This document shows, piece after piece, positions 13,113 through 38,337 of a stretch of 64,000 nucleotides of DNA; position 1 is the stretch's first letter, and each line of letters opens with the position of its first letter. Position numbers and translations under genes: made by a program. This stretch comes from Chloroflexota bacterium (GTDB taxonomy: Bacteria; Chloroflexota; Anaerolineae; Anaerolineales; Villigracilaceae), in the NCBI GenBank assembly GCA_026390035.1, contig JAPLGT010000035.1:3330-67329 (forward strand), read 5' to 3'. Below the pieces are notes generated by a model. It made no database searches. It saw only the letters and a program-made list of their open reading frames with translations, and had not been told where the DNA came from.

Positions 13113-14366
13113 ATGGAATCAAAACCAACATTATGGGTTGAGGTCGACCAACAGGGTCGGCTGGTTATGCCTGCCGAAGTTGTGGACCAATTCGGTCTGA
13201 AACCGGGCGCAAAAATGCGGGTTGAATCAAACGGGCATGGTTTCAAGATGCACCGCCCAGTGACACAACTAACAAAGATTTACATCGAGCCGACGGTAGA
13301 TTGTAATCTGGACTGCATCACCTGTTTTCGGAATGCCTGGGACCAACCAATCGGCAAGATGAGCGACGATACCTTTGCCCACATTCTGGATGGTTTGAAA
13401 GCCATGGACCCGATCCCCCATGTATACTTTGGTGGAATTGGTGAACCACTTTTTCATCCGCGCACCATTGAATGGATCCGGCAAATAAAAGCCCTCGGCA
13501 CACGGGTGGAATTGATCACCAATGGCACGACCCTGGTGGAAAAGAAAGCGCGCGAACTAATCGATACCGGGCTGGATGTTCTCTGGGTCTCGCTGGATGG
13601 AGCCACACCCGAAAGTTACTCGGATGTGCGCCTGGGTGCAGAGCTGCCTCAAGTGGTGGAAAACATTCGCAGGTTTTCAAAAATGCGGAAAGGCGGGCAC
13701 TACCCACGGCCAGAGATTGGTGTGGCCTTTGTAGGCATGAAGCGCAATATCGACCAGCTGCCACAAGTAATCAAACTGGGTAAATCGATGGGTGCCAGGC
13801 ATTTTTCAGTCAGCAATGTACAACCCGCCACAAAAGAAATGCAGGCCGAGCGTCTTTACACACGCACCATGACCAATATCGCCTACCTGCCTTCCAGCAC
13901 CAACCCTTACCTGAGCCTGCCTAAGATGGATTTTAACGAAGATACCCGCGAAGCCCTGTTTGCAGCCTTTAACAGCGGATGCAATGTCAGTTTTGCGGGT
14001 AATAATTGGGGCGGCTCAAACGACGTCTGTAACTTCATCGAAAGTGGCACCATGACGATTGCATGGAACGGCGATGCCAGTCCATGCTGGCCTCTGATGC
14101 ATAACCACACCAGCTTCTTGCACGGGAAGCCGCGAAAAATCAACAAACACGTGATTGGCAGTGTACAGTCGCATAGCATCGAAGAATTGTGGTTAGACCC
14201 GGCTTATGTCGGCTACCGTGAAAAGGTGCAGCGCTTTGCCTTCGCACCCTGTACGTTTTGTGGCGGTTGTGAATTATCCGAAGAAAATAAAGAAGACTGC
14301 CTTGGCAACGAAGCTCCCGCCTGCGGAGGCTGTCTTTGGGCACAAGGCGTCATTCAATGCCCATAA
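13113..14366 (+). CDS. Radical SAM/SPASM-domain enzyme with N-terminal AbrB/SpoVT-like domain
   Basis: N-terminus: VEVDQQGRLVMPAEVVDQFGLKPGAKMRVE, resembling an AbrB/MazE swapped-hairpin. Radical SAM motif CNLDCITC (CX3CX2C) plus a GGIGEPL glycine motif. Cys-rich SPASM-like tail: CWPL..., APCTFCGGC...CGGCLWAQGVIQCP. Confidence 0.85.
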   Translation: MESKPTLWVEVDQQGRLVMPAEVVDQFGLKPGAKMRVESNGHGFKMHRPVTQLTKIYIEPTVDCNLDCITCFRNAWDQPIGKMSDDTFAHILDGLKAMDPIPHVYFGGIGEPLFHPRTIEWIRQIKALGTRVELITNGTTLVEKKARELIDTGLDVLWVSLDGATPESYSDVRLGAELPQVVENIRRFSKMRKGGHYPRPEIGVAFVGMKRNIDQLPQVIKLGKSMGARHFSVSNVQPATKEMQAERLYTRTMTNIAYLPSSTNPYLSLPKMDFNEDTREALFAAFNSGCNVSFAGNNWGGSNDVCNFIESGTMTIAWNGDASPCWPLMHNHTSFLHGKPRKINKHVIGSVQSHSIEELWLDPAYVGYREKVQRFAFAPCTFCGGCELSEENKEDCLGNEAPACGGCLWAQGVIQCP

Positions 14367-14450
14367 AGCCTAAAAACAACACAAACAACCTTGATATTTA
14401 GCTTCTACCTATGGGGCTGCGTGGCAATAGAATTGCTTCCAAACCCTGAA

Positions 14451-14498
14451 AACGAAATCGAGCGGGTCTAAAACCACCCGCTCGATTTCGTTTTTTTT
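14451..14498 (+). terminator. Rho-independent terminator
   Basis: AACGAAATCGAGCGGGT / ACCCGCTCGATTTCGTT, a 17-bp stem, followed by T8. Confidence 0.85.
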
Positions 14499-14671
14499 AG
14501 ACTCTGCTACCAAAAACGGTCACCAGCAATTACGAAAGTTACCCTGTTGTGACCCAACGAATCATTTTAATCTCAATCTTAAAATAAGGATATCAAGTGA
14601 ACAGACTGGAGAATCATTTGAATGGAATTAAGAATAACAATATTTTCACACACACTTTGTTACAAAAGGTC

Positions 14672-14714
14672 TTGACAATCTTACATGGAAACCGTACAAT
14701 GGTATCGTTACCAT
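14672..14714 (+). promoter_or_regulatory. Sigma70-type promoter (TTGACA-17 nt-TACAAT) with overlapping LacI-type operator ATGGTATCGTTACCAT
   Basis: The -35 TTGACA is at 14672-14677 and the -10 TACAAT at 14695-14700. The operator at 14699-14714 fits TGnnAnCGnTnnCA. The site is ~70 nt upstream of the ABC operon ATG. Confidence 0.6.
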
Positions 14715-14783
14715 GAGTTAATTATTAATATCATATTTAAGACTTTCGTCTAACCAAACAAGCATACTAAGGAACGCTCGCTA

Positions 14784-16298
14784 ATGAATAGTCCTCTGGT
14801 TTTGATGGAAGGCATCGAAAAGTCATTTACAGGCGTTCATGCGCTCAGCCAATGCAGGTTTGAACTCCAGGCTGGTGAAGTTATGGCGTTGGTTGGGGAA
14901 AACGGCGCTGGAAAGTCCACTTTAATGAAGATTTTGACCGGAGTCTATAAAAAAGATGCCGGTCATATTTTTTACAAGGGACAAGAGGTTGAAGTCCCGA
15001 ACCCGGCTGCGGCCCAACACCTGGGCATCAGCATTATTCACCAGGAACTCAACTTGATGCCGCATCTCAGTGTGGCTCAGAATATATTTATCGGGCGAGA
15101 ACCTCGCAAAGCAAAAATTTTTCTAAACGACGACGAAATTAATTTAAAAACAACCCAGCTGTTGGACATGATGCACCTCAAGCTTGATCCACGTGTAAAA
15201 GTGGCTGATCTAACCGTTGCGAAGCAGCAGATGGTAGAAATTGCCAAAGCGCTCTCGTACAATGCTGAAGTTTTGATCATGGATGAACCGACTGCTGCGT
15301 TGACCGAATCTGAAATTGATGAGCTTTTTATCATAATTCGACGTCTGCGCGAAAAAGGCGTCGGGATTGTGCATATTTCACATCGCCTGGAAGAATTAAA
15401 ACAAATCTCCGACCGCGTGACAGTCATGCGTGACGGTCAATACATCGATACGGTCAACACCAAAGAAACCTCCATCGACAAGATTATCAGTATGATGGTC
15501 GGCCGAACGATATTTGAATCCTCCCCCGAAATTCCAGAAAACCCATCCAGCGAGATCGTGCTGGATGTAAAAAATCTCAACCGCGGGAATGTCATCAAGA
15601 ATGTCAGCTTTTGCCTGAATAAAGGAGAAATCCTCGGGTTTGCCGGGTTGATGGGCGCCGGGCGGACAGAGGTGGCACGCGCAATTTTTGGCGCCGACCC
15701 TTATGAACAGGGCGAAGTATATATTCGAGGTAAAAAGACCGACATCAAAAGTCCAAACGACGCGGTCCAACATGGTATTGGATATTTATCCGAAGATCGA
15801 AAAAGATATGGTCTCACGCTTGGAATGGATGTAGAGACAAATGTTGTTTTGGCAGCCTACAACAAATTCCTGGGATTTTTGGGGATCGTAAAGAATGAAA
15901 AAACAGCGGAAACAGCCGAGCATTATGTGCAGGCTCTGTCCATCAAAACGCCAAGTATTCAACAGAGCACAAAGAATCTTTCAGGCGGAAACCAGCAAAA
16001 GGTGATCATAGCAAAATGGTTGACCGCCAACACCGAAATCTTGATCTTTGATGAACCTACTCGTGGTATTGACGTTGGAGCAAAGAGCGAAATTTACAAA
16101 CTGCTCAACGATCTGGCTCGCCAGGGCAAATCAATCATCATGATCTCTTCTGAGCTGCCAGAAATCTTGCGTATGAGTCACCGGATTATCGTAATGTGTG
16201 AAGGTCGCATTACTGGCGAGCTGGATGGAGCAACCGCCACACAAGAGAAAATCATGAAATATGCCACCCAGCGCACAGAATCATTGATCGTTAATTAA
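14784..16298 (+). CDS. Sugar ABC transporter ATP-binding protein (RbsA/MglA-type, duplicated ABC domains)
   Basis: Two Walker A motifs ([18 protein letters not shown]), an LSGGNQQK signature and two Walker B motifs (LIMDEPT, LIFDEPT). Confidence 0.92.
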
Positions 16299-16366
16299 GA
16301 TTAACCGCATTTTACAATCTGCTTCCTGACTCACACGCACACCCAATAACGAATTTCGGAAGGTGA

Positions 16367-17359
16367 ATGATGTCCATTATAAATGCTCAGAAACAATCTT
16401 TCCTGCGCTCAGATGCAACCCAAAAACTGCTGGCATTTGCAGCCCTGATTGTGCTCTTCGTGGGCTTTTCTCTGGCATCGCCTAACTTTTTTTCTTTCTC
16501 AAATATCACCGGTATATTACTGGCCACGGCCGTAAACGGTGTGTTGGCGCTGGGGGTCACATTTGTCATCATCACGGCCGGGATCGATCTTTCGATTGGC
16601 ACAGTTATGACATTTTCAGCCGTCATGACCGGTGTTTTTATCACAATGTGGAAGCTGCCGGTTTCAGTGGGTGTTGTAGGTGGTTTGCTCGCCGGGGGTG
16701 CCTGCGGATTGGTAAGCGGTATCCTTATCGCCAAGATGAAAATTCCACCTTTCATTGCCACACTCGGCATGATGATGGTCACTAAGGGTCTTTCTCTGGT
16801 GATTTCAGGTTTGAAACCAATTTATTTTACCGACACTCCAGTCTTCAATCAGATTGCAATGGGATCAGTCCTGGGAAAAATCATCCCAGGCTTTGAAATT
16901 CCCAATGCAGTCTTAATCCTGTTCGCGGCTGCAATTATAGCCAGCCTGGTTCTGACGAAAACAATCTTGGGACGCTATGATTGCGCGATTGGCTCTAATG
17001 AAGAAGCTACACGGCTTTCTGGTGTCAACGTGGATCGTTGGAAAATTGCGATCTATAGCCTGTGCGGTTTGTTCGCCGGGTTGGCAGGCGTATTGATGGC
17101 CTCGCGCTTGAATTCAGCCCAACCCGCGCTAGGTGCTGGGTATGAGTTGGATGCAATCGCTGCAGCAGTGATCGGCGGCACTTCTTTGAGCGGTGGAGAA
17201 GGTACCATCGTCGGAACCATTATTGGCGCATTCATCATGAGCGTTTTAACCAATGGTTTACGCATTCTCTCAGTGCCGCAAGAATGGCAAATGGTGGTTA
17301 CCGGCGGGATCGTGATTGCCGCCGTATATGCAGATATCCTGCGCCGTCGCCAAAAATAA
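16367..17359 (+). CDS. Sugar ABC transporter permease (RbsC/AraH family)
   Basis: 330 aa, multi-TM, with characteristic blocks (GIDLSIG, GGTSLSGGEGT). Confidence 0.9.
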   Translation: MMSIINAQKQSFLRSDATQKLLAFAALIVLFVGFSLASPNFFSFSNITGILLATAVNGVLALGVTFVIITAGIDLSIGTVMTFSAVMTGVFITMWKLPVSVGVVGGLLAGGACGLVSGILIAKMKIPPFIATLGMMMVTKGLSLVISGLKPIYFTDTPVFNQIAMGSVLGKIIPGFEIPNAVLILFAAAIIASLVLTKTILGRYDCAIGSNEEATRLSGVNVDRWKIAIYSLCGLFAGLAGVLMASRLNSAQPALGAGYELDAIAAAVIGGTSLSGGEGTIVGTIIGAFIMSVLTNGLRILSVPQEWQMVVTGGIVIAAVYADILRRRQK

Positions 17360-17466
17360 CGGCAAATTTCAAAGATGAAAGGAGCAGAGAAAATAAAAAG
17401 AAATCTATGCTCGAAAAGAAGTCTGTTCAATTTTTCAACCCTAACACTCTAAGAGGAGAAATAGAA

Positions 17467-18453
17467 ATGAAGGCTCAAAAACTGTTTTCTTTATTCGTGA
17501 CCCTCGTGGTCATCTCCATGCTGGTCGCTGCTTGCGCTCCCGCTGCCGCCCCCGCCGCCCCGGCCGCTCCCGCTGCCGCCACCAAACTGTATATCCCTGT
17601 TATTTCCAAGGGTTTCCAGCACCAGTTCTGGCAAGCCGTCAAGATTGGTTCCGAGAAGGCTGCAAAAGATTTGAATGTTGACATCTCCTTTGAAGGCCCT
17701 GAAGGCGAAAATCAAGTTGACAAACAAGTTGAAATGTTCCAGACCGCCCTCGACAAGAAACCAGCCGCCATCTGCCTGGCCGCAGTAGACTCCAAGGCTT
17801 TCATTCCGCTGCTTGAGAAGGCCAAGGCTGCCAAGATCCCCGTGATCGGCTTTGACTCCGGCGTCGACAGTGACATCCCGGTCACAACCGCTTCCACTGA
17901 CAATATTGCCGCCGCCGCTATGGCTGCTGACAAAATGGCCGAACTTGTCGGTGGCGAAGGCGAAGTTGCCGTTATCGCTCACGACCAGACCAGCCGCACC
18001 GGCATCGATCGCGTCAAAGGCTTCACTGATCAGATGACCAATAAGTACCCCAAGATCAAGATCGTCGAAACCCAGTATGGTGGCGGCGACCAACTCAAAT
18101 CCACCGACCTGGCCAAGACCATCATCCAGGCCCACCCCAACCTGAAGGGCTTCTTCGGCGCGAACGAAGGCTCGATCATCGGCGTGCTGAACGGCGTCAA
18201 AGAAATGAACATGATCGGTAAGATTGTAGTCATCGGCTACGACTCCGGCCAACAGCAGATGGACGCTGTCCGCAGTGGCGCCGAAGCCGGCGCGATCACC
18301 CAGGACCCGATCGGTATTGGTTACAAATGCGTTGAAGCTGCCGTGAAGGCTGTCAACGGCGAAACCCTGCCCAAGAACATCGACACTGGCTTCAAATGGT
18401 ACGACAAGACCAACATCGACGACCCGGCCATCCAGGCTGTGCTGTACAAGTAA
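17467..18453 (+). CDS. Sugar ABC transporter substrate-binding lipoprotein (PBP type I, RbsB-like)
   Basis: The ATG at 17467 follows GAGGAG. Signal peptide plus lipobox LVAACAP. A PBP-I fold is suggested by IPVISKGFQHQFWQ and VIGFDSG. By eye this gene is notably more GC-rich than its operon partners. Confidence 0.85.
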   Translation: MKAQKLFSLFVTLVVISMLVAACAPAAAPAAPAAPAAATKLYIPVISKGFQHQFWQAVKIGSEKAAKDLNVDISFEGPEGENQVDKQVEMFQTALDKKPAAICLAAVDSKAFIPLLEKAKAAKIPVIGFDSGVDSDIPVTTASTDNIAAAAMAADKMAELVGGEGEVAVIAHDQTSRTGIDRVKGFTDQMTNKYPKIKIVETQYGGGDQLKSTDLAKTIIQAHPNLKGFFGANEGSIIGVLNGVKEMNMIGKIVVIGYDSGQQQMDAVRSGAEAGAITQDPIGIGYKCVEAAVKAVNGETLPKNIDTGFKWYDKTNIDDPAIQAVLYK

Positions 18454-18471
18454 TTTGATCGGTTATGAAGT

Positions 18472-18503
18472 GGGCTGCTGGTTCTCCAGCAGCCCTTTTT
18501 TTA
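18472..18503 (+). terminator. Rho-independent terminator/attenuator after the SBP gene
   Basis: GGGCTGCTGG-TTCTC-CCAGCAGCCC followed by T7. Confidence 0.8.
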
Positions 18504-18577
18504 TCCTTTTGCCCGGAGAACTGGTCTTGTCCCGGTTCTTAAATAAGGTTCCCAGTGGTATTACGAAAGCCGGAATA

Positions 18578-18613
18578 TTGACAGATAATTGGTATCATCT
18601 GATAATACCAATT
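18578..18613 (+). promoter_or_regulatory. Promoter (TTGACA-17 nt-GATAAT) overlapped by inverted repeat AATTGGTAT-N9-ATACCAATT
   Basis: The -35 is at 18578-18583 and the -10 at 18601-18606. The inverted-repeat arms lie at 18587-18595 and 18605-18613. The site is 27 nt upstream of the GRE activase ATG. Confidence 0.5.
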
Positions 18614-18639
18614 ATCAAATATGATTTGAGAAATGATGT

Positions 18640-19509
18640 ATGCAAATTAAGATTTTCCAAAAAGGCTTTAATTATTCTCAAGACGGTACCGGCAACCGTC
18701 TGGTCTACCATCTGCAAGGGTGTAATTTGCATTGCCCTTGGTGCGCCAATCCTGAAGGGATTGCCATCAAAGGGGCTCTCTGGGTATCCAACGAATTTCT
18801 AATTGACTCAATTTGTCCGTATGGTGCCATCGACTCAAAACAAATTAATCGATTGCTGTGTGATGCTTGCAACACCAGAGAATGCATTACCCGCCACAGA
18901 ACCAGGGGGATCCGGCTTTCTTATCAAGAATACGAAATCGATGCCATTATTGAAGAAGTTAAACGAAGCTCTGCTCTTTTTTATGATGGAGGCGGTGTAA
19001 CTTTAAGCGGTGGAGAACCAACCCTCCAATTTGAACCCGTCAAACTATTATTGAGTGAATTAAAAAATCTGGGTATCCACACAGCCATTGAGACCAATGC
19101 CAGTCACCCCAGGCTTGAAACTCTTTTTCCATTTATTGATTTACTCATCATGGATTTCAAACATTACGACGATGCTCTTTGCGCCAGTGTGACCGGTGTA
19201 AACAATGCGATAGTCAAAGAAAATATCCTAAAAGCAGCTGCCTTGCACAACAGGGTCCTGATACGCGTCCCAGTTATCAAGAGTTTTAATGATTCAGTGA
19301 CCGATATCTGGAATTATGTTGGTTTTTTCAAACAGCATAATATTTCAAATGCAACTTTTGAATTTTTACCTTTCCATGAATACGGTCGGACAAAATGGCA
19401 GCAGTGTGGAATGTCATACATCATGCAAGATGGTTATGTTAATCCAGAAATAATCGCTTTATATGAAAAAATATTCATGGATAGCAATTTCAAGTTGGCC
19501 CATACATAA
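18640..19509 (+). CDS. Glycyl-radical enzyme activating protein (radical SAM, PflA family with ferredoxin-like insert)
   Basis: An N-terminal CNLHCPWC (CX3CX2C) lies after GxGxR-like FNYSQDGTGNRLV. Extra Cys residues are present (CPYGAI...CDACNTREC). It sits immediately upstream of a GRE. Confidence 0.9.
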   Translation: MQIKIFQKGFNYSQDGTGNRLVYHLQGCNLHCPWCANPEGIAIKGALWVSNEFLIDSICPYGAIDSKQINRLLCDACNTRECITRHRTRGIRLSYQEYEIDAIIEEVKRSSALFYDGGGVTLSGGEPTLQFEPVKLLLSELKNLGIHTAIETNASHPRLETLFPFIDLLIMDFKHYDDALCASVTGVNNAIVKENILKAAALHNRVLIRVPVIKSFNDSVTDIWNYVGFFKQHNISNATFEFLPFHEYGRTKWQQCGMSYIMQDGYVNPEIIALYEKIFMDSNFKLAHT

Positions 19510-19520
19510 GGAGATATTGG

Positions 19521-21959
19521 ATGTCCATTGAAAAAATTTATGCCACAGAAGCATTGAATCAAATGGCCCGCAAACTCTTTGAAGAAGAACGGAAGCGGAA
19601 CCGCCTGGATGGCTGGTTTATTGCGAAAGAAATTGCGCGTGGGTGCGACGAAAAGTATCGCGAGCTTCCGTCTCCTTTGAAAGCAGCCGAAACCCTGCGA
19701 GAAATCCTTAAACAAATTCCGCTTGAGATCAGCGAGCATGCAATTTTTGCAGGTACACAAAAAGATGCCTTTGCGAGGTCTTATGCGTTGATCAACCCTG
19801 CTTTTAGGGTCGACTCTTTCAACGGATATTGTGATCCTGCGGCTGTATTTAAGGACATCCAACCCGATGAAATATTTAGCGAAGCACGGATCCAAGCGCT
19901 CCGTGCTTATACCCTGGAAACGCCCTTTGTGAAGAATCTAAAAGATGCCTATAAAAAGGCGGAGAATGACACATCCGAGGCCGTTTATTTTATTGAACAG
20001 GTGACCGGACATCTCATCCCAGACATTAAACCGGTTCTTTCGATGGGCATTGAAGGGCTCTTGCAAGCAATTGATCAAAACAACCTTATCACCACAGATC
20101 CATCCCAAAAAACCTATTTTGAAGCGATCAAGATAACGCTGGATGGAGTAGCCATACTGGCAGGTCGCTATGCAGAATGTGCCAGACAGTTGCTCCAAAA
20201 TGAGACCAACCCTGAGCGCAGGGATTTGCTAAAGCTGATGGAAGACACTCTGAGAAAGGTTCCATTCCGGGCAGCTGAAAACCTGTATGAAGCCATCCAA
20301 TCTTTTATATTGATCTGGCAGGCCATGTGTCTGGAACAAGCACCCAACCCGTTTGCCTTTTCTGTCGGGAATGCTGACCGCATTTTTGAGCCCTACCGCG
20401 CAGCCGGCGCATCAGACAGCCAAACCACTTCGGCACTCTTTAAACATCTGTTGGTTTTCTTCAACGTCGGTGACCGAAGTTGGGCTATTTCACAAAACCT
20501 GATCGTGGGCGGCAAATCAGCTGCAGGGACAGATCTCACAAACGAATCAACCTATGCGCTTCTGGATGCTTATTATGAAATGAACCTGCCCCAGCCAATC
20601 CTTTCAGTGAAGCTGCACAAAAATACTCCGGATGATTTTTACCGAAGCCTGGGACGGTTTTTATTCACGCCGGGGCTCCTGACCCCATCGTTTTTCAATG
20701 ATGATGCCCTTTTCCCCATACTTTCAAATTCTGGTGTGGAAAAGATCGACCTTGAAAATTACTCAATTGCCGGATGTCAGGAACCTCTGATCATGGGAAA
20801 GGATAACGGCAATACAACCAACAGCTGGCTTAACTTAGGAAAAATACTTGAGCTAACCATCCACGGCGGGGTTTCGTCGATTACTGGAAACCAAATCGGC
20901 CCTGGCTATGCCCAAATCGGCATTGATTCCATGGATGCACAAACGATCCTTTCCGATATCAGGTTGGCCTTTTATCGGAATGTAGAATTTTTTGTGCGCA
21001 GAATGGTTAATGCCGCCAATGAGCTATCAGGGGTGCTGGCTTTGTTACCCGTTCCGTTTACTTCCGCTTTGATGGGAGGCATCGATTCAGGTGTGGACCT
21101 GAGAGATACTCATCAGCAAGGCACAAAATATAACGGCAGTGGCTGCCTGATCCATGGGCTTTCTACCATTGCAGACTCATTTACAGCCATTGATTTATTC
21201 CTGCTGGAAAGACCGCAAGATTCGGCCCGACTTATCGCAGGCCTGCAATCAAATTTCGATCAGGACGAAGAACTACGACAATATTTGCTGACCTGTCCCA
21301 AATTCGGCAACAACAGCGCTGAGGTAGACAGAGAAGCACGTGAAGTTGTCATCAAGATCAGTGACCTGGTTGCAAGCCAGAAAAACTATTTGGGGAATCC
21401 ATTCCGCCCCGATTGGAGCACGCCATCCACCCACCTACTCTATGGCTATTGGGTCGGAGCCACGCCCGATGGTAGAAAATCGAGGGAAATGCTGGGGTAT
21501 GGCATCGACCCCTTATATGGAGAAGCCCAGTCAGGCCTGGGCTTCCGGGTCTTATCCAATTTAAGCCTACCCTTTGAGCGCATGAACGGTGGTTACGCCT
21601 CCCATTTTGGGATCGACCCCAATCATTTTTCTGGAACAAGCTTTGAAGAGCGAGGCCTGGAATTCAGAGACAAGATCATAATGCCACTTTTTTTTAATCG
21701 ACTGAATAAAAACATCGCCCCATTTTATCTATACGTGAATGTGACCACCCCGGAGATACTGCGCCAGGTTTTAGAAAATCCTCAAAAATATGCTCCGAGC
21801 GGAATCTACATTGTGCGCATCCACGGCACGTTTGTAAATTTCCTGGACCTATCCCCTGATATTCAGGAAGATATCATCAAACGGCTTGATTTAAAATCCA
21901 CGAATATCTCCCAGGCACCATCCACCCTAAAGGAAGCTCAAGTCATCCTGACCGCTTAG
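19521..21959 (+). CDS. Glycyl radical enzyme, PFL2/glycerol-dehydratase-like clade, substrate unknown
   Basis: 812 aa, with AAGGAG as RBS. The thiyl loop is IAGCQEP (Cys419, codon at 20775-20777). The glycyl-radical motif is IVRIHGTFVNFLDLSPDIQEDII (Gly769, codon at 21825-21827). Confidence 0.9.
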   Translation: MSIEKIYATEALNQMARKLFEEERKRNRLDGWFIAKEIARGCDEKYRELPSPLKAAETLREILKQIPLEISEHAIFAGTQKDAFARSYALINPAFRVDSFNGYCDPAAVFKDIQPDEIFSEARIQALRAYTLETPFVKNLKDAYKKAENDTSEAVYFIEQVTGHLIPDIKPVLSMGIEGLLQAIDQNNLITTDPSQKTYFEAIKITLDGVAILAGRYAECARQLLQNETNPERRDLLKLMEDTLRKVPFRAAENLYEAIQSFILIWQAMCLEQAPNPFAFSVGNADRIFEPYRAAGASDSQTTSALFKHLLVFFNVGDRSWAISQNLIVGGKSAAGTDLTNESTYALLDAYYEMNLPQPILSVKLHKNTPDDFYRSLGRFLFTPGLLTPSFFNDDALFPILSNSGVEKIDLENYSIAGCQEPLIMGKDNGNTTNSWLNLGKILELTIHGGVSSITGNQIGPGYAQIGIDSMDAQTILSDIRLAFYRNVEFFVRRMVNAANELSGVLALLPVPFTSALMGGIDSGVDLRDTHQQGTKYNGSGCLIHGLSTIADSFTAIDLFLLERPQDSARLIAGLQSNFDQDEELRQYLLTCPKFGNNSAEVDREAREVVIKISDLVASQKNYLGNPFRPDWSTPSTHLLYGYWVGATPDGRKSREMLGYGIDPLYGEAQSGLGFRVLSNLSLPFERMNGGYASHFGIDPNHFSGTSFEERGLEFRDKIIMPLFFNRLNKNIAPFYLYVNVTTPEILRQVLENPQKYAPSGIYIVRIHGTFVNFLDLSPDIQEDIIKRLDLKSTNISQAPSTLKEAQVILTA

Positions 21960-22053
21960 GTTTCGCACAATGGATCGGGGTCAGATAACCTGAACCCGGG
22001 TTGCCATAAGCAGTCTTTTTTTTGCGAAGAGATCGCTGAATATCAACAAAACA

Positions 22054-23085
22054 ATGGAAAATGACCTTCTGTATTTGTCTCTGAAAAACAAGATTTGTGA
22101 AAAGATATTCTCCGGAGTCTATAAAGAAGGCGAAAATCTTCCGCCTGAACGCGTCTTATCCGAATATTACAATATGAGCCGCGTCACAGTCAGGAAATCT
22201 CTTGCGCTGCTGGAAAAAGAAGGCATTCTTGAGAGGCTGCAAGGCAGCGGCACCAGAGTGAAATTTCGAGAAACAGGATACAAAGGCACACTGGACATCA
22301 TTGCCCTGCTTGCCCCCGCCCAAAACCCTTTTTTCTCCACGTTTATTGAACATTTCCAGAGAAATGCCGAGAAAAACGATTCTCTGGTACTTTTCAAACA
22401 GAACATCTCACATGAAAGAGTGGAAGACAGTCTTTTTAAACTGCTTCAAAAAAATATCCACAATGTTGTCATCTGGTTGGAAGATCTAAAACTGGAGAGA
22501 GAATCTGTGCGCAAACTTCGCGCACTGGGAATGAATATGGTCCTTTTTGACATCATCGTGCCCACACCGTATGCCGATTGTGTCTTACTTGATAATCGCG
22601 ATGCGGTTACTTGCCTTTACAATTTTTTATACTCCAAGGGCATTCATGATATCGCCTACATCGGCTGGGATAATTTCGAATTATCAAGTATTCGTGAACG
22701 TGAAAATATTTACCTGGAGCTCCGCGGATCCAAGGATTTACTCTTCCATATCCCGTGGACGGAAAAGGCCAACCTGGCATATGTGCTGGAGAGATTTTTT
22801 AACAACTCCATAAAAATTCATCCTTTGCCTGTGGGCATAATCTGCGCAGATGGCGAACTGGGTGTGGCCTTGAAAAAGACCCTGGCGGAACACGGGATAA
22901 ATAATGAAACCATCGTCGCGATCGATGACTTTCCCACTGCAGAGGCTCTAGCGCTGAGCGTATATGCGCAGCCGTTTGATGCTCTGGCACAGCAGGTATA
23001 CCAATGCCTTTTGGAACAAAACCTGCAATCAGATCAATGGAAGGCTTCGGTCAGGGTTGTAAAAGGAAAAATCATAACGCGCTGA
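22054..23085 (+). CDS. AraR-like chimeric regulator (GntR wHTH N-terminus + LacI/PBP-I sugar-binding C-terminus)
   Basis: The N-terminus LPPERVLSEYYNMSRVTVRKSLALLEKEGILERLQGSGTRV is a GntR-type wHTH. The remaining ~270 aa look like a periplasmic-binding-protein-I fold. Confidence 0.8.
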   Translation: MENDLLYLSLKNKICEKIFSGVYKEGENLPPERVLSEYYNMSRVTVRKSLALLEKEGILERLQGSGTRVKFRETGYKGTLDIIALLAPAQNPFFSTFIEHFQRNAEKNDSLVLFKQNISHERVEDSLFKLLQKNIHNVVIWLEDLKLERESVRKLRALGMNMVLFDIIVPTPYADCVLLDNRDAVTCLYNFLYSKGIHDIAYIGWDNFELSSIRERENIYLELRGSKDLLFHIPWTEKANLAYVLERFFNNSIKIHPLPVGIICADGELGVALKKTLAEHGINNETIVAIDDFPTAEALALSVYAQPFDALAQQVYQCLLEQNLQSDQWKASVRVVKGKIITR

Positions 23086-23094
23086 AATGAGGAT

Positions 23095-24474
23095 ATGATC
23101 AAGATGAGAAAGGTGCGCTCGATTGGTTTGGATATCGGCACCACCACGCTTTGCGCAGTGGTCTTGGATGGCGAAAACGGAGAAATGGTGGATACGCTTA
23201 CCATACCGAATAATTCGTCATTGGAAAGCGAACAACCATGGGCTCGATTGCAGGATCCACGGGTGATCGTTGCAAATATTAAACAGATTGTCGCAGAATT
23301 AGAAATGAAACATGCCCCGATTTCATGTATAGGGCTGACCGGCCAGATGCACGGCATTGTCTATCTGGATGATATTGGCAATCCAGTCAGCCCATTCTAC
23401 ACCTGGCAGGATGGCAGGGGAAATCTCGAATACCGGGATGGGCTCAGTTATGCCGAATACCTTTCGCAGGTTTCTGGAACTAAACTCGCCACCGGATTCG
23501 GCGCGGTGACCCATTTTTATAATCTGGTGAATGGCCTGGTTCCGGCTTCTGCAAGGGTTATCAGTACGATCTATGATTATGCTGGGCTGCAGCTTGCCTG
23601 CGTTACCAGACCAGTGCTCCATCCCAGCAGCGCAGCCAGTTTGGGCTTCTTTAACATCGAAACCAATTGCTTTGATCGCAATGCCTTACAGGCTGCGCAC
23701 ATCAACGAAACCTTTTTCCCTGAGACTACCCCGAAAATTGAAATTATCGGGAAAACCGAGTCCAACATTCCAGTGGCTGTCGCCATTGGTGATAATCAGG
23801 CCAGCTTTATAGGGTCGGTCAATCACAGCACAGAATATTTGCTGGTAAATATTGGCACATCAGGACAGATATCCCTTTTTATCAATGATTATATTAAAAA
23901 CTCTCCGATTGAGATCCGGCCATTCTCAAGTGATGGTTTTCTGATGGTAGGCGCTTCGCTTTGTGGGGGCCGAGCCTACGCCCTGCTTGAAAATTTCTTT
24001 CGCTCAGTTGTACAAATGGCAACAGGCGCAACCTGCCCACCTTTATACGAGATCATGAATGAACTAGCCAGTCATTATCCTACACTGGAACACAAACTTG
24101 AGATCTCCACCCAATTTTGCGGCACCCGTGAGAATCCCTGGCAGCAAGCAGCAATTAACAACCTTGGGGTCGATAATTTCAGCCCTGCTCACTTCATTGT
24201 TGGAACACTGGAAGGGATTGCCAGGGAACTCTATGACCTGTATGAAATTATGAGTACCCAGGGTTCCGTCAAACCCACAAAACTGGTCTGCTCGGGTAAT
24301 GCGCTGCGTCTAAACCTACCTTTGCAAAGACTGGTTTCAGACATATTCGGTATGCCGATCAGCATTCCCCGCTACAAGGAAGAAGCCGCCTGCGGCGCGG
24401 CGCTCTTTGCACTTGTCGCGGCTGGACATCAAAAAAGCTTGGCCGCGGCACAAGCACTGCTGCAATACGAATAA
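23095..24474 (+). CDS. FGGY-family carbohydrate kinase (sedoheptulokinase-like)
   Basis: IGLDIGTTTLCAVVLD phosphate-1 motif, plus GLTGQMHGIVYLD, YTWQDGRG, and the C-terminal GNALR...EEAACGAALFA. Confidence 0.85.
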   Translation: MIKMRKVRSIGLDIGTTTLCAVVLDGENGEMVDTLTIPNNSSLESEQPWARLQDPRVIVANIKQIVAELEMKHAPISCIGLTGQMHGIVYLDDIGNPVSPFYTWQDGRGNLEYRDGLSYAEYLSQVSGTKLATGFGAVTHFYNLVNGLVPASARVISTIYDYAGLQLACVTRPVLHPSSAASLGFFNIETNCFDRNALQAAHINETFFPETTPKIEIIGKTESNIPVAVAIGDNQASFIGSVNHSTEYLLVNIGTSGQISLFINDYIKNSPIEIRPFSSDGFLMVGASLCGGRAYALLENFFRSVVQMATGATCPPLYEIMNELASHYPTLEHKLEISTQFCGTRENPWQQAAINNLGVDNFSPAHFIVGTLEGIARELYDLYEIMSTQGSVKPTKLVCSGNALRLNLPLQRLVSDIFGMPISIPRYKEEAACGAALFALVAAGHQKSLAAAQALLQYE

Positions 24475-24779
24475 AGCACAAGTACCGGCCTAACATGAAC
24501 CCGCCAGGAGTTTGCAGATCCTAGCGGCTGCTTGTCGGAAACATAGTTGAATTAAGCACTACGCGCAAAACTGGCGGGTAAGACATTACAGATTGCAAAG
24601 AAAGTGGCTGTATTTCCTGGGTAAAACCCAATTCACACAGGAAATATAGCCATGAGTATTTTAAGCCAAAAAATGCAGGCTGACTTGTTTTCCAAATGTT
24701 AACATGCCCTTCCTCTACTATTAACAGAAATTGGTTACACTAGTATTAATTGAAAAGTTAGCAATGAGAACAATTACCT

Positions 24780-25844
24780 ATGATCAATTATCCGCCTTAC
24801 GAATATAAACTTCCGGTCAGTATTGCAGATTTGCCAGGGCATGTTTTTTCAGTAACCCCGGAGACGCTTGCTGAAAAAGTCGTGGCAGAGTTACAAAATC
24901 AGCCAGCCCGGCCCGGTGTCATGATTATTGAAAATGGAAAATTGGTGGGGGTTGTAACGCGATTGAAGCTTTTTGAACGAGTCGGACATCGTTTTGATAT
25001 AGAGTTGTTTCTACAAAAACCCATTAGTCAATTAAAAGATCTGATTCGTACCAACACTCAGGCTATGCCAGGGTATGCTCGCATCGATGAAGCCATTCAA
25101 TATGCCCTCAGCAGAGCTGCTCCAGATATATTTGATCCTATTGTTGTGCTGCGTGATGATGGCACACTGCAATTACTGGACATAAACATACTATTGTCGG
25201 CTCAGTCACATGCAATGGCCAGCCTGAGCAATATCGGAGGAAATTTGGAGCAAATAGACAGCCTGATTCATTCAACCCATGACGTGAATGAAATCCTTTA
25301 TATCATCCTGCGGCTTTTGTGCCATGTGGTTCCCTATCATCAGTCAGCAATTCTTGCCATTGATGAAATGGGTCTGGGCTTCGTAGCCCATTCTGGATAT
25401 CGCCCGGATCCAAATCGAGCTGATGATGTCATGAAAAGCGGTACATATGCGCTCATTATGAAATATCGCCTGGCCATTTATATACCCAATGCATGTAATG
25501 CGACTGCCTGGAGGGGTATGGACGTTCTGGGCACACCGATTGCCTGGTTGGGCGTGCCGCTCCTGCTGAACCACCAACCGCTTGGTCTGCTTTCAATCAG
25601 TCGCAATGTGGAAAGGGCTTTCGATAGCGATGAACGTAAAACTGCTCTGGCATTCGCCCAACGGATAACCGAATTGCTCAAATGTGGACAACCAGCTGCC
25701 AGTAATTTAAACGAATTACAAAAATCATTAGATGCCAGGTTTCCACGGGCAGGAGAATCAGTACTGGAGCAAATGTATCGAGGGAATAAGTCTTTAGATA
25801 TAGTGATTAAATCTGCTTTGGGGGAATGGCAGAAATATGGGTAA
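24780..25844 (+). CDS. Sensor-like protein with CBS-like N-terminus and GAF-like C-terminus, no output domain
   Basis: 354-aa ORF. The segments PGVMIIENGKLVGVVTRLKLFE and DPIVVLRDDGTLQLLDINILL look like a CBS pair. The later segment (ILYIILRLL...AILAIDE...LGVPLLLNHQPLGLLSISR) looks like GAF. The domain calls are tentative. Confidence 0.5.
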   Translation: MINYPPYEYKLPVSIADLPGHVFSVTPETLAEKVVAELQNQPARPGVMIIENGKLVGVVTRLKLFERVGHRFDIELFLQKPISQLKDLIRTNTQAMPGYARIDEAIQYALSRAAPDIFDPIVVLRDDGTLQLLDINILLSAQSHAMASLSNIGGNLEQIDSLIHSTHDVNEILYIILRLLCHVVPYHQSAILAIDEMGLGFVAHSGYRPDPNRADDVMKSGTYALIMKYRLAIYIPNACNATAWRGMDVLGTPIAWLGVPLLLNHQPLGLLSISRNVERAFDSDERKTALAFAQRITELLKCGQPAASNLNELQKSLDARFPRAGESVLEQMYRGNKSLDIVIKSALGEWQKYG

Positions 25845-25964
25845 TATCATTTTTGTTCTGGTATTAGTGTTTTTAGTAGTAACGATGTTGGCGCTTGTAT
25901 CCATCGTTTTGCTCGTCACGGTGGATGAAGGTGGTAAAAATATATTTCAGAGGAAGATGGATAA

Positions 25965-26750
25965 ATGAGTAAACATATTTTAGTAACCAATGATGATGGT
26001 GTGACCGCCCCCGGATTGCTCGCACTGGCCCAGGCGATGCAAGCAATCCCAGATACAAAAGTAAGCATACTTGCCCCGGATCGCAACTGGTCTGGCAGCG
26101 GGCATGTCAAAACCCTGGATCGTCCGCTACGCATCAAAGAAGTGGTACTTGCCGATGGTTCAACCGCCTTTGCCAGTGATGGCGCGCCCTCTGATTGTGT
26201 GGCGTTGGCGCTGCTCGGTTTCTTCGAAGAGAAGATTGACCTTGTCGTTTCAGGCATCAACCCTATGGCCAACCTTGGGCACGACGTTACCTATTCCGGA
26301 ACCGTCACTGCTGCAATGGAAGCGCTGATTTGGGATATACCCGGAATTGCTTTTTCACTCGGTTCGCTGGAAAACCACCTGGGAACGCTTGATTACACCA
26401 CTGCAGCTGTCATTACCCGACGAGTGGTGGAAACAGCGCTGGCGCATCGTTTTACCCCTGGGATGCTGCTCAATGTAAATATTCCATACCTGCCAGCCGA
26501 CCAGATCAAAGGGTTCCATATTACCCGCCAGGGATTACGAGTTTATCGCGACCGGTTAGATAAACGTGTTGACCCGCGCGGGCGTCCTTACTACTGGATT
26601 GGGGGTGATTCACCCACCGGTACGCCCGAGGAAGGCACGGATGTCGGCGCGCTATCAGCCGGGTATGTTTCCATTACCCCCATCCAGCTCGATTTGACCA
26701 TGTATACATCCATTCCGACCCTGGGGGATTGGGGCTGGGAAAATAAATAA
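25965..26750 (+). CDS. surE: 5'/3'-nucleotidase SurE
   Basis: The canonical N-terminus ILVTNDDGVTAPGL is present, along with SGINPMANLG and YSGTVTAAMEA. Confidence 0.92.
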   Translation: MSKHILVTNDDGVTAPGLLALAQAMQAIPDTKVSILAPDRNWSGSGHVKTLDRPLRIKEVVLADGSTAFASDGAPSDCVALALLGFFEEKIDLVVSGINPMANLGHDVTYSGTVTAAMEALIWDIPGIAFSLGSLENHLGTLDYTTAAVITRRVVETALAHRFTPGMLLNVNIPYLPADQIKGFHITRQGLRVYRDRLDKRVDPRGRPYYWIGGDSPTGTPEEGTDVGALSAGYVSITPIQLDLTMYTSIPTLGDWGWENK

Positions 26751-27892: not shown

Positions 27893-29035
27893 ATGCCCAA
27901 AAAGGTCTTTGTCAGTGGATGCTTCGATTTACTGCACAGCGGTCATGTGGCTTTTTTTCAGGAAGCCGCCAGGTATGGCGACCTGTACGTTGCGATCGGT
28001 TCGGACCGCACAGTTTTTGAACTCAAGAATCGCTCCACAGTTAACAATGAAAATGAACGCAAGTATATGATCAAAGCCCTGGCCAACGTCAAAGACGTAC
28101 TGATCGCAAAAGGCTCGGGCATGCTGGATTTTGTTGATGAATTGAAAGAAGTCCAACCTGATTTTTTTGTAGTCAACGAAGATGGCAACCTGTTGGAAAA
28201 AAAGAAACTGTGCGATGAATTGGGCATCGAATATGTTGTTCTAAAGCGTGACCCTCACCCAGGCCTGACCCCGCGCTCAACTACTGCGCTGCGCGGAATG
28301 AGCAATATCCCCTACCGCATTGACATCGCGGGAGGCTGGCTGGACCAACCATTTGTCTCCCAATACCATTCCGGACCGGTGCTGACGATTTCAATCCACC
28401 CAACTATTGAATTTAATCAACGCAGCGGCATGGCTTCCAGTACCAGGGCTTCGGCGGTGCAAATGTGGGGTGCAAGGTTGCCTTCGGATAACGTTGAAAA
28501 ACTAGCAAAAATGCTATTTGCATACGACAACCCCCCGGGGACAAAAGAAATCTCAGGCTCCCAGGATTCGATCGGCATCATTTATCCTGGCCTGGCTAAA
28601 GCAGACTATGATGGCAAATACTGGCCAACCCAGATTACAGCAATGCAAGATGAACATATTCTGACATTTATTGAGGAAGCCCTTTACCTGATACCACTCA
28701 GCCCACGACCCTCCGGTTTCCATGTGCTCGAGAATACGAATATCACACCTGAAGGAGCCAAGGCTCTGGCCGACGCAGCTATTTCTTGTTGGGAAGCCAT
28801 CCTTGCCAGAAACGTGATCGAATTTGGTCGCAGCGTGCGCGCCAGCTTCGACGCCCAGGTGGCAATGTTCCCGCACATGTTGACTGACACGATGCTAGAG
28901 TTGATTGATATTTACCATGAACGCGCCCTGGGTTGGAAGGTCTCTGGTGCAGGCGGCGGCGGTTATTTGATCCTGGTCTCCGATAAGCCCATCGAAAATG
29001 CTGTGCGAATTAGCGTAAGACGCCAGAGCGATTAG
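27893..29035 (+). CDS. Bifunctional cytidylyltransferase-fold nucleotidyltransferase / fucokinase-like GHMP sugar-1-kinase
   Basis: The N-terminus VFVSGCFDLLHSGHVAFF carries the HxGH motif of the TagD/RfaE-II family. The C-terminus has RIDIAGGWLDQPF, SGMASST, SGSQDS and WKVSGAGGGGYLILV, which are GHMP/fucokinase-like motifs. TATAAT lies at ~27845 and GGAGGA serves as RBS. Confidence 0.8.
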   Translation: MPKKVFVSGCFDLLHSGHVAFFQEAARYGDLYVAIGSDRTVFELKNRSTVNNENERKYMIKALANVKDVLIAKGSGMLDFVDELKEVQPDFFVVNEDGNLLEKKKLCDELGIEYVVLKRDPHPGLTPRSTTALRGMSNIPYRIDIAGGWLDQPFVSQYHSGPVLTISIHPTIEFNQRSGMASSTRASAVQMWGARLPSDNVEKLAKMLFAYDNPPGTKEISGSQDSIGIIYPGLAKADYDGKYWPTQITAMQDEHILTFIEEALYLIPLSPRPSGFHVLENTNITPEGAKALADAAISCWEAILARNVIEFGRSVRASFDAQVAMFPHMLTDTMLELIDIYHERALGWKVSGAGGGGYLILVSDKPIENAVRISVRRQSD

Positions 29036-31649: not shown

Positions 31650-31679
31650 TTGACAACGTATGGTATCGATACCATACGT
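31650..31679 (+). promoter_or_regulatory. TTGACA -35 box followed by a perfect 24-bp palindrome (LacI-type operator)
   Basis: TTGACA is at 31650-31655. ACGTATGGTATC|GATACCATACGT at 31656-31679 is its own reverse complement. The core ATGGTATCGATACCAT (31660-31675) fits TGnnAnCGnTnnCA. The site is 24 nt upstream of the LacI-family ATG. Confidence 0.65.
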
Positions 31680-31702: not shown

Positions 31703-32737
31703 ATGACAACCATCCATGATGTGGCCAAACGAGCCGGAGTTGCCTCAATCACTGCTTCACGGGTGATCAACAATTCCGGCTATGCCAGCGAAGCTGTGCG
31801 CAAACGCGTGCAGGATGCTGCCAGAGAAATGGGATATGTACCCAACCGCCTGGCCAGCAGCTTGCGCTCACGGCGCACGAATGTGCTGGCGCTGGTACTG
31901 ACCGATATCACCAATCCTTTTTTTACGGTAGCAGCTCGCGGCGTGGAAGATGTTGCCAACCAGGCAGGTTACACTGTAATTTTCTGTAATACAGATGAAG
32001 ACAAAACCAAAGAACAGAAATATGTCGAGATATTAATGCAAAATCGGGTCGATGGGGTCATCCTGGTACCAAGCGATTCTGATTCTGGATCAGTTGAGAC
32101 TTTGCAACAAAACGGCGTTCCCGTGGTGGTCATCGACCGGCACGTACCGAGCAAAACTGTCGACCAGGTACGTTGCGATTCGATCGGCGGCGCCCACGAT
32201 CTGACCCGGCTCTTAACCTCGCTCGGACACCAGCACATCGCACTCTTGAACGGACCGCAAAATGTATCCACCGCAGCTGACCGCCTGACCGGGTTTCAAC
32301 TGGCAATGCAGGAGGCTGGCAACCCGGCCCGGGCAAATCAAGTGATCATCTCTGGATCTTTCAACCGTGCCAGCGGCTATGAGATGGCCCGACAGGTGCT
32401 TTCGATGTCACCTCGCCCAACCGCCCTGCTGGCAGGTAACAACTTCATTGCCTTGGGCGCTTTGCAGGCCCTGGAAGAAGCCCGCGTGCGCGTGCCGGAA
32501 GACATGGCCGTGGTGGCCTTTGACGACCTGCCGGAATCCCTGGTAGTTTCGCCCTTTTTGACAGCCGCTGCCCAGCCCGTCTATGAAATGGCGACCAGGG
32601 CCACTGAAATTTTGATTCGACGCCTGGGAAACAACACTGAAAAAGAGTTTAGCGAAGTCATTTTCCCCACCCGGCTTATATTACGAAAATCGAGCGGCGC
32701 AGCCATCCATCCTGAGACTTCTTCGCTGCCCAGCTGA
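31703..32737 (+). CDS. LacI-family transcriptional regulator
   Basis: The ATG at 31703 opens MTTIHDVAKRAGVASITASRVINNSGYASEAVRKRVQDAAREMGYVPNRLASSLRS, a canonical LacI HTH plus hinge. A PBP-I effector domain follows. Confidence 0.92.
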   Translation: MTTIHDVAKRAGVASITASRVINNSGYASEAVRKRVQDAAREMGYVPNRLASSLRSRRTNVLALVLTDITNPFFTVAARGVEDVANQAGYTVIFCNTDEDKTKEQKYVEILMQNRVDGVILVPSDSDSGSVETLQQNGVPVVVIDRHVPSKTVDQVRCDSIGGAHDLTRLLTSLGHQHIALLNGPQNVSTAADRLTGFQLAMQEAGNPARANQVIISGSFNRASGYEMARQVLSMSPRPTALLAGNNFIALGALQALEEARVRVPEDMAVVAFDDLPESLVVSPFLTAAAQPVYEMATRATEILIRRLGNNTEKEFSEVIFPTRLILRKSSGAAIHPETSSLPS

Positions 32738-34691: not shown

Positions 34692-34692
34692 T

Positions 34693-37434: not shown

Positions 37435-38337
37435 TTAGATTCCCTGATAACAAACGAAGGTAAACCCATTTATACTCTGCAACCTGGGGTGTCGCCTGTG
37501 AACCCGTCTGCCGGGCCCGGGAAGTTGGTTAAAATATTTGGTCTCTCCATCAGCCGAACCAAAGAAATAGTCCGGCTGTCCTGCCTGAGCGCGGGCATGT
37601 AGTTGGTCTGCTAGCTGCCAGCCATTCAGGGCCTTGCCCTGATAAGTCCACTTGAATGGTTTGGCCATTGTCAGGTTGTAATATTCGATGAAAGCCAGAA
37701 CTTTGCGTTTTAGATCATCCACTGATGTGAAATTGCCTCGTTTCAGAGCTTTTCGAACCAGGATACTGAACCAAATATCGATTTGGTTCATCCAAGAAGC
37801 ATGCTTGGGCGTGTAATGAAAAACGATGCGATGTGTTGGATCACTCAAAAAGGCGGCGCGCGAAGCTTTCGATTTCAAAATACCGGATTTACCTTTCTCG
37901 CCTAAATCAGAAGTAATGTCTGACTCTTCCGCAACATATCGAACCAGCGATTCTGACATGTGCGTGTTGAGATTATCGCAAACAAAGCCATATTTCACGA
38001 CCAATGGGTCAGAAACAACGCGCTCTTTGATATGCGCCAGGAAATCTTTTTCGTTGCGAGTCTTCTTTGCTGTGCAGGCAACCAGTTTTCCAAGCACAAT
38101 ATCAAAGTTGCAGGTAAAAGACAAAGTACCATGCCGTTTGTATTCGAACTCAATACGCCTTACCTTGCCAGGCTGCATGGGTAGATCCGGATGTTTACGC
38201 TCTAATGCTTGAACACCTGTCATTTCATCGATACTTTCCAGCTGTTCTCCCTGTTTGGCCAGTTCAGGAGCTTGTTTGCAAGCCTCGTTAATAGCAGCAA
38301 CCTTGTCGTCAAAACCTGCTTCACACGCTGGTGTCAA
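37435..38337 (-). CDS. IS630-family transposase, DDE catalytic part (orfB)
   Basis: [24 protein letters not shown] and [16 protein letters not shown] form the DD(E/D) triad region. The frame is +1 relative to orfA. Confidence 0.8.

Follow-up and report, generated by a model that had tools for sequence, protein, structure and literature searches.

Glycerol dehydratase (DhaB1 of C. butyricum, 1R8W) and the propanediol dehydratases (9RCO and 5I2A) are the best matches to a glycyl radical enzyme (GRE) encoded in a 64,000-nucleotide stretch of contig JAPLGT010000035.1 (assembly GCA_026390035.1) from a Chloroflexota bacterium of the Villigracilaceae; the whole of this stretch is referred to here as the window. 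These matches are found at E 9e-63 and 4e-57 with template modeling (TM) scores of ~0.77-0.80, and the dehydratases have in common with the window GRE the barrel, the Cys-x-Glu loop, an equivalent of His164, the Gly loop and a separate radical-SAM activase. They differ from it in that the substrate-contacting positions hold smaller polar residues in the window GRE, in which 11 residues are missing before AISQN and 3 are inserted ahead of the Gly loop; the window clade further displays Gln after the Cys, His before the Gly and a 2-residue insertion (EQxPNP). The partners at the locus are a sugar kinase and a regulator, without microcompartment or 1,3-propanediol genes. The propanediol dehydratase structure among the best matches is identified in PMC12756279.

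GREs that act on sugars are represented by YbiW and PflD of E. coli, the C-O lyases of 1,5-anhydroglucitol-6-phosphate and 1,5-anhydromannitol-6-phosphate that work with FsaA and FsaB (PMC13450708). The window GRE has the Cys-x-Glu and His apparatus in common with these two enzymes, at 22-26% identity. In E. coli the aldolase gene stands beside the GRE gene (ybiW-ybiY-fsaA and fsaB...pflD-pflC), as it does in nine relatives of the window locus but not in the window; furthermore, a phosphotransferase system (PTS) phosphorylates the substrates of E. coli as they enter the cell, whereas the window-type cassette has an FGGY kinase and, in some cases, an ATP-binding cassette (ABC) importer.

The GRE module of the window resembles the logic of YbiW/PflD and their FSA aldolases but lies outside every characterized family. 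Its conserved unit consists of an activase, the GRE, a regulator with GntR and periplasmic-binding-protein-type domains (GntR/PBP) and an FGGY kinase, which make up a self-regulated catabolic cassette; it is likely that the GRE is functional, cleaves a C-O bond in a sugar or polyol substrate, and is coupled to the kinase. The four genes of the cassette are as follows.

18640-19509, + strand: radical SAM enzyme that activates the GRE, 289 aa (200.6 bits on TIGR02494, cut-off 174)
19521-21959, + strand: GRE, 812 aa (PF02901, E 3e-110)
22054-23085, + strand: regulator with a GntR helix-turn-helix (HTH) and a Peripla_BP_3 domain, the AraR architecture (PF00392, 5e-17; PF13377, 1e-7)
23095-24474, + strand: FGGY kinase (FGGY_A, 'sedoheptulokinase-like' lineage; PF00370 and PF02782)

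An initial annotation, made from the sequence alone, listed seven genes on the + strand at 14.7-24.5 kb (these four and the three of an importer), a Cys419 loop IAGCQEP and a Gly769 motif VRIHGTFVNF; the genes lie exactly as listed and both motifs are in place. Its statement that shell, sulfite, proline-pathway and small-subunit genes are missing was borne out by family scans across the window, in which all four were absent.

Catalytic Residues and Predicted Fold

In the translation and the alignments the Cys loop of the GRE reads A417-G418-C419-Q420-E421-P422. The counterparts of C419 and E421 in glycerol dehydratase are Cys433 and Glu435, and C419 also aligns to the corresponding Cys of YbiW and PflD; the CxE motif of eliminases and isomerases is therefore present as C419-Q420-E421. 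The Gly motif reads V765-R-I-H768-G769, with G769 aligned to the radical Gly of glycerol dehydratase, while His164 aligns to the His164 of glycerol dehydratase and has equivalents in YbiW and PflD. The GRE motifs, including Gly769, Cys419, Glu421 and His164, are invariant across 77 aligned family members and are therefore not due to chance; as the catalytic residues are invariant, the reading of the family as pseudo-enzymes was ruled out. The Glu of the CxE motif acts on the substrate hydroxyl, and the roles of Cys, Glu and His are taken from a review of the superfamily (PMC13450708). The activase carries the cluster motif CNLHCPWC (C28-x3-C32-x2-C35 in the translation); together, alignment and structural model indicate that the window encodes a functional GRE with its cognate activase beside it.

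The GRE C-terminal fingerprint is given as RVxG[FWY]x6-8[FL]x4Qx2[IV]x2R (PMC13450708). The C-terminus of the window GRE reads R766-I-H-G769-T-FVNFLD-L777-SPDI-Q782-ED-I785-IK-R788; the Gly, Leu, Gln, Ile and Arg fit, Val is replaced by Ile, and the aromatic residue after the Gly is replaced by Thr. The window GRE is not matched by the Pfam model PF01228 (Gly_radical) at E 0.001; this model misses the core family because of the 3-residue insertion and the Thr after the Gly.

An AF2 model of the GRE built on the 77-sequence alignment has a predicted local distance difference test score (pLDDT) of 81 and a predicted TM score (pTM) of 0.87; a model built on a 12-sequence alignment was too poor to use (pLDDT 65, core <50). 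The model contains the full PFL-like 10-stranded beta/alpha barrel and superimposes on GRE structures with TM scores of 0.75-0.80 to all eliminases and isomerases, a range that does not discriminate among the eliminases. Pocket residues were mapped by sequence alignment only. At the positions of Ser282, Tyr339, Asp447 and Tyr640, which we take to be the glycerol-contacting residues of glycerol dehydratase, the window GRE has Ala279, Ser324, Thr433 and Ser633; neither Tyr339 nor Tyr640 is replaced by Arg or Lys, and their change to Ser is consistent with a larger, neutral ligand.

Family, Spread and the Deeper Clade

The initial annotation called the GRE an orphan and named tight clustering within a characterized family as the outcome that would overturn this; no such placement was obtained, and every curated GRE model scores the window protein below its cut-off, by wide margins. 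TIGR01774 (PFL2/glycerol dehydratase) reaches 247.7 bits against a cut-off of 678.2 and PRK09983 (PflD-type) 176 bits against 1109; for the NCBIfam equivalogs the scores and cut-offs are 184/1100 bits for HypD, 181/1000 for HpsG/HpfG, 170/1000 for IslA and 148/1050 for CutC. Among solved structures, glycerol dehydratase (216 bits) and a propanediol dehydratase (197 bits) come closest, both at ~23-25% identity, and the IslA in the PDB scores 129 bits; scores within the family exceed 1170 bits at 63-82% identity.

A search with family-specific peptides found the GRE family in at least 511 species genomes. Carriers include many gut Lachnospiraceae, Oscillospiraceae and Acutalibacteraceae of human and animal origin, as well as digester Anaerolineae and Propionivibrio. 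Copies from Anaerolineae, Bacillota and Propionivibrio are ~62-72% identical, with a protein identity of ~70% to those of Bacillota, and the G+C content of window positions 14001-26000 (0.45-0.49) is 3-6 points lower than that of the left flank (0.51-0.52); for these two reasons the sequences suggest that the cassette has spread horizontally and moved between phyla. Whole GRE clades remain without validation (PMC13450708); no functional characterization of the present family was found in the literature, and this review of June 2026 does not mention it. The family is a large, widespread orphan family rather than a new kind of system.

A deeper clade was surveyed using representatives clustered at 50% identity, ~95 of them full-length. 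Among these ~95 representatives a His before the radical Gly is combined with Cys-Gln-Glu only in the seven best full-length matches, which also share the 2-residue insertion (EQxPNP), the 11-residue deletion and an STPSTH strand; the core family adds the 3-residue insertion and the Thr after the Gly. Sister clades (33-39% identity) are likewise found in sugar contexts: one (37% identity) lies beside an FGGY kinase, an activase and an ABC system, and another is accompanied by genes for a DeoR regulator, an FGGY kinase, SIS and PfkB proteins, a class II aldolase, a lyxose isomerase and a RuBisCO-like protein. A nucleoside hydrolase is seen in a further sister-clade context. One surveyed protein, P0129 (746 aa, 39% identical), has Asp in place of the catalytic Cys, Arg in place of the His164 equivalent and the Gly motif RVPGA; judged by these replacements it is probably a non-catalytic paralogue.

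Conserved Partners across Related Loci

Gene neighborhoods were counted in 86 related loci, and PTS and shell genes were surveyed in 87. The activase gene lies immediately 5' of the GRE gene in at least 71 of the 86. The FGGY_A kinase is present in 46, always at +1/+2, and a non-orthologous FGGY kinase of the xylulokinase class (TIGR01312, 465 bits against a cut-off of 380; ~21% identical to FGGY_A) is found in a further 17 loci, directly beside the GRE or activase gene. In a reciprocal check, two kinase orthologues picked independently of the GRE again adjoin an activase-GRE pair; this recurrence from both sides makes a kinase step integral to the pathway. The GntR/PBP regulator occurs at +1/+2 in 39 of the 86 loci. 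The kinase and the AraR-like regulator, both named in the initial annotation, are thus real and conserved partners of the GRE. Its further label 'sedoheptulokinase-like' agrees with how the kinase orthologues are automatically named at JGI, NCBI and UniRef, but no curated kinase model reaches its cut-off for the window kinase (XylB, 126 bits against 380). The sedoheptulokinase (SHPK) branch has the FGGY N and C domains in common with the window kinase, and its name on the window orthologues is an automatic one.

Other neighbors point to sugar metabolism of several kinds. A mannose-6-phosphate-isomerase-like cupin, which matches mannose-6-phosphate isomerase 1QWR weakly (E 1e-18), is encoded in 20 loci, mostly of Acutalibacteraceae, and Zn-dependent polyol dehydrogenases in 14. 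An FSA-type fructose-6-phosphate aldolase is found in nine of the 86 loci, usually with a third FGGY lineage; it scores 312 bits on NF009299 (cut-off 214), has the Gln/Tyr signature and shares 36% identity with FsaA. A hexitol-type set of GatD, GatYZ, PfkB and DeoR genes occurs in eight, rhamnose genes in five, a psicose epimerase in five and DeoC in four, alongside an N-acylglucosamine-2-epimerase-family protein and aldose epimerases. Fructose-type PTS genes were found in none of the 87 loci, and among the 86 related ones microcompartment shell genes were seen only in L006, within an unrelated eut cluster. An alpha-glucan lyase was considered among the Oscillospiraceae neighbors, as it would point to anhydrofructose, and was set aside; by eye the large proteins concerned (c27, c61-c63) look secreted or surface-like.

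Transporters are less constant. CUT2 ABC systems are present in ~11-15 loci; in L052 and L063 the importer genes lie 3' of the kinase gene and are read in the same direction. The closest relatives of the window GRE (L001-L003, L007) have no ABC importer at the locus; the importer-GRE arrangement of the window recurs in one related Anaerolinea metagenome-assembled genome (MAG; L009), where the permease is 96% identical, and in Blautia GRE loci only distant ABC systems are adjacent (binding protein 28-34% identical). The importer-GRE link is lineage-specific.

The activase exists in two forms, one of 289 aa with a single four-Cys insert and one of 247-254 aa that lacks the insert, like PflA (L004 and L074 were compared). 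Activases of the eliminase class usually have two ferredoxin-like motifs; the window activase has one four-Cys insert (C59, C74, C77, C82), and the single insert of the 289-aa form suffices for one auxiliary cluster. In one Oscillospiraceae-type locus (among L097-L099) an activase-GRE-kinase-cupin array is followed by genes for a GlpA-like FAD dehydrogenase, a pyridine-nucleotide-disulfide oxidoreductase, a DUF1667 protein and an alpha-L-fucosidase; the first three of these are presumably associated with anaerobic glycerol-3-phosphate oxidation.

Transcription Units and Operators

The importer and the GRE operon, although neighbors, are separate transcription units. Their genes and signals are listed below in order.

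14672-14700, + strand: promoter-like site of the ABC operon, TTGACA-17-TACAAT
14700-14713: LacI-type operator of the ABC operon, the 14-bp palindrome TGGTATCGTTACCA, distinct from the GRE operator
14784-16298, + strand: ABC ATPase, ribose-type, CUT2 (RbsA model 601 bits; its cut-off of 745 is not reached)
16367-17359, + strand: ABC permease, middle gene of the CUT2 importer
17467-18453, + strand: lipoprotein binding protein (true start 17467, MKAQKLF...LVAAC, lipobox)
14784-18453, + strand: the whole CUT2 importer, a transcription unit of its own next to the GRE operon
18472-18495 (18472-18505 in the wider delimitation), + strand: strong intrinsic terminator of the ABC operon (10-pair stem, 8 G-C, then TTTTTTT)
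18578-18606, + strand: promoter-like site of the GRE operon, TTGACA-17-GATAAT (11/12 consensus matches), overlapping the operator
18589-18611: GRE-operon operator TTGGTATCATCTGATAATACCAA, core of a 33-nt palindrome at 18584-18616 and predicted site of the regulator
21998-22026, + strand: weak terminator-like hairpin (7 pairs, 3 G-C) and T-run in the gap between GRE and regulator genes, a possible attenuation point

The GRE-operon operator lies 5' of the activase gene and has the pattern TTGGTAT-N9-ATACCAA. A scan for this motif over the 87 loci (1.6 Mb) found it with perfect half-sites in 29, one copy each, directly 5' of the first gene of the GRE operon; these loci span Anaerolineae, Lachnospiraceae, Oscillospiraceae and Propionivibrio, and the motif is almost confined to loci with a GntR/PBP gene. 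This co-occurrence marks TTGGTAT-N9-ATACCAA as the predicted operator of the GntR/PBP regulator, and the protein is predicted to be a repressor of the GRE operon. Regulators of the AraR type have the same architecture of a GntR HTH and a LacI/PBP sugar-binding domain, and their palindromic operator likewise overlaps the promoter of an operon that includes the regulator's own gene; the operator sequence and the effector are specific to the family of the window regulator.

The palindrome of the ABC operon has a near-twin elsewhere in the window, TGGTATCGATACCA at 31661-31674, which differs by one base and lies 5' of a LacI-family gene; it is the core of a perfect 24-nt palindrome at 31656-31679, which reads ACGTATGGTATC followed by GATACCATACGT. 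The LacI-family gene (31704-32737) heads a cluster (genes at 32780-36871) that encodes a GDP-fucose-synthase-like NAD-dependent epimerase, a cytidylyltransferase-like protein and two proteins without a family match. As TGGTATCGTTACCA, with one base changed, is common to the importer and this LacI-led cluster, it ties the importer there and not to the GRE, and the two suggest an import-and-activate (nucleotide-sugar salvage) regulon. An operator linking importer and GRE was ruled out, since the half-sites are spaced by N2 in one and by N9 in the other, and it is the N9 form that accompanies the GntR regulator. A second cytidylyltransferase-like gene, its product having a fucokinase-like C-terminus, is located at 27893-29035.

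Proposed Function and Alternatives

The Cys/Glu/His set aligned above fits C-O cleavage or dehydration on a sugar-like molecule, in keeping with the radical chemistry proposed in the initial annotation. The favored scheme, to which we assign a probability of about 0.4, is that the GRE converts a neutral polyol or anhydro-sugar to a deoxy-ketose, which is then taken up by the kinase and, in some relatives, by an aldolase. The activase would place a radical on Gly769, and a thiyl radical on Cys419 would take a hydrogen from a carbinol carbon of the substrate, a sugar alcohol or anhydro-sugar that is neutral and carries no phosphate; candidates are a 1,5-anhydrohexitol or a hexitol. Glu421 would deprotonate the carbinol hydroxyl and His164 protonate the neighboring oxygen, so that the C-O bond is broken by 1,2-elimination of water or by opening of the ether ring; the product would be a deoxy-ketose with an open chain and D-threo configuration, 1-deoxy-D-fructose for example. 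The kinase, or the xylulokinase-class kinase in other genomes, would phosphorylate the terminal hydroxyl of the deoxy-ketose, and in a subset of genomes the fructose-6-phosphate aldolase encoded nearby would cleave the phosphorylated ketose to hydroxyacetone and glyceraldehyde-3-phosphate. The scheme would thereby be a PTS-independent counterpart of the YbiW/PflD 'anhydroglycolysis' of E. coli.

The terminal carbon of open-chain D-threo 2-ketoses is where sedoheptulokinase and xylulokinase add phosphate; FSA aldolases share this specificity for the D-threo configuration, and E. coli XylB also accepts 1-deoxy-D-xylulose. The names of the kinases, the specificity of FSA and the position of fsaA and fsaB beside GRE genes in E. 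coli make a 1-deoxy-ketose the most economical product, and the hexitol-type neighbors (GatD-like, GatYZ-like, PfkB, DeoR) are also counted in favor of the scheme. Several observations weigh against this scheme. The aldolase is missing from the window and adjacent in just nine of the 86 loci; in sequence, glycerol dehydratase (E 9e-63) is closer to the window GRE than YbiW and PflD are (2.5e-35 and 4.1e-42); and the closest solved relatives, as 1,2-diol dehydratases, abstract hydrogen from C1 and give aldehydes, not 1-deoxy-ketoses. The order of GRE before kinase is assumed. The cupin, the N-acylglucosamine-2-epimerase-family protein, the aldose epimerases and the rhamnose genes are left unexplained by the scheme, and the cupin and epimerases hint at mannose/fructose-type interconversions that none of the schemes uses.

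If the kinase acted first, the end of an alditol would be phosphorylated and the GRE would dehydrate the free terminal 1,2-diol to a 2-deoxy-aldose phosphate, for example 2-deoxyribose-5-phosphate, which DeoC would split into acetaldehyde and glyceraldehyde-3-phosphate. This order is rather unlikely, although it agrees with the chemistry of the closest solved relatives, the glycerol and propanediol dehydratases, which make aldehydes from terminal diols; YbiW and PflD are precedents for phosphorylated GRE substrates, FGGY kinases include polyol kinases (we take E. coli XylB to phosphorylate xylitol), and DeoC adjoins the activase in four loci, such as that of Merdimonas. Four loci among 86 are few, however, and the FSA-type aldolase, with nine, is commoner; both kinase lineages are named for ketose rather than alditol substrates, the mappable pocket positions hold no obvious Arg/Lys clamp for a phosphate, and two Glu residues close to strand 1, Glu153 and Glu159, are invariant. 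Least of all is an ordinary B12-independent glycerol or 1,2-propanediol dehydratase to be expected; such an assignment, very improbable here, draws on glycerol and propanediol dehydratase being the top PDB matches by both sequence and fold, but the identity is ~23-25%, scores of 216 and 197 bits compare with >1170 within the family, the TIGR01774 score is far under its cut-off, and the glycerol-contacting Ser282, Tyr339, Asp447 and Tyr640 have given way to Ala, Ser, Thr and Ser, respectively. Genes for 1,3-propanediol dehydrogenase, shell proteins and aldehyde dehydrogenase are absent from the locus, which has a sugar kinase and a sugar-type regulator instead.

The initial annotation favored a substrate related to L-fucose or L-galactose, imported by the adjacent ABC system as part of one unit with the GRE, and read a shared operator as a hint to these sugars. 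The adjacency is real and recurs in the Anaerolinea MAG; rhamnose (6-deoxy-hexose) genes lie near the GRE in five loci, and the best solved relatives of the binding protein (4kqc, 4rxt, 4wut, 5dkv) give no verified ligand but are putative pyranose-type binders. The importer, however, has its own promoter, the strong terminator at 18472-18495 and an operator common to the LacI-led cluster of nucleotide-sugar type, and it is missing from the closest GRE relatives, so that it does not hold as part of the GRE unit. The shared operator joins the importer to the LacI-family gene, and as the GRE operon carries a different, family-wide operator the L-galactose/L-fucose hint does not extend to the GRE; moreover, complete non-radical pathways already exist for fucose and rhamnose. 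A substrate of this type is accordingly unlikely. Equally unlikely is that the GRE removes from a sugar derivative something besides water or a ring oxygen, whether an amine, a phosphate put on by the kinase or the methanol of an O-methyl sugar; this would constitute a new subclass of bond cleavage. GRE eliminases already cut C-O, C-N and C-S bonds with the same Cys/Glu apparatus (PMC13450708), the pairing of GRE and kinase is near-obligatory, and the Gln420 and His768 signature sets the active site and Gly loop of the clade apart from those of every member studied so far; the argument is nevertheless purely chemical, a leaving group made with ATP would be costly for fermenters, and genes handling phosphate, amine or methanol do not recur nearby. 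More broadly, the His-Gly/Cys-Gln-Glu clade could be a new functional class of sugar-active GREs with chemistry unseen in the superfamily, which is considered improbable; the possibilities would be radical removal of a kinase-installed phosphate or deoxygenation of common sugars to deoxy-sugars, and the His beside the radical Gly would then alter radical storage or installation.

Other Features of the Window

A radical SAM/SPASM protein is encoded at 13113-14366, just upstream of the ABC operon; its best model is a tungsten-cofactor oxidoreductase maturase (287 bits, under the cut-off of 380), and no aldehyde:ferredoxin oxidoreductase gene was seen in the window. On the - strand, a 2895-aa open reading frame at 40295-48982 contains many right-handed beta-helix/NosD repeats as well as fibronectin type III domains; its neighbors are a transposase of the IS630 type at 37435-38337 and a locus for polysaccharide synthesis at 49.7-63.4 kb.

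Significance

GREs of gut microbes are responsible for anaerobic reactions of great consequence, among them the formation of trimethylamine, p-cresol and H2S. The cassette described here is under strong constraint and offers clear handles: its kinase, a predicted repressor whose operator is defined, and the importer and aldolase that certain genomes add; it is a good experimental target. Discovery of its substrate would add a route of carbohydrate or polyol fermentation that is now annotated as 'pyruvate formate-lyase', and would test radical sugar ring-opening or dehydration beyond YbiW and PflD of E. coli.

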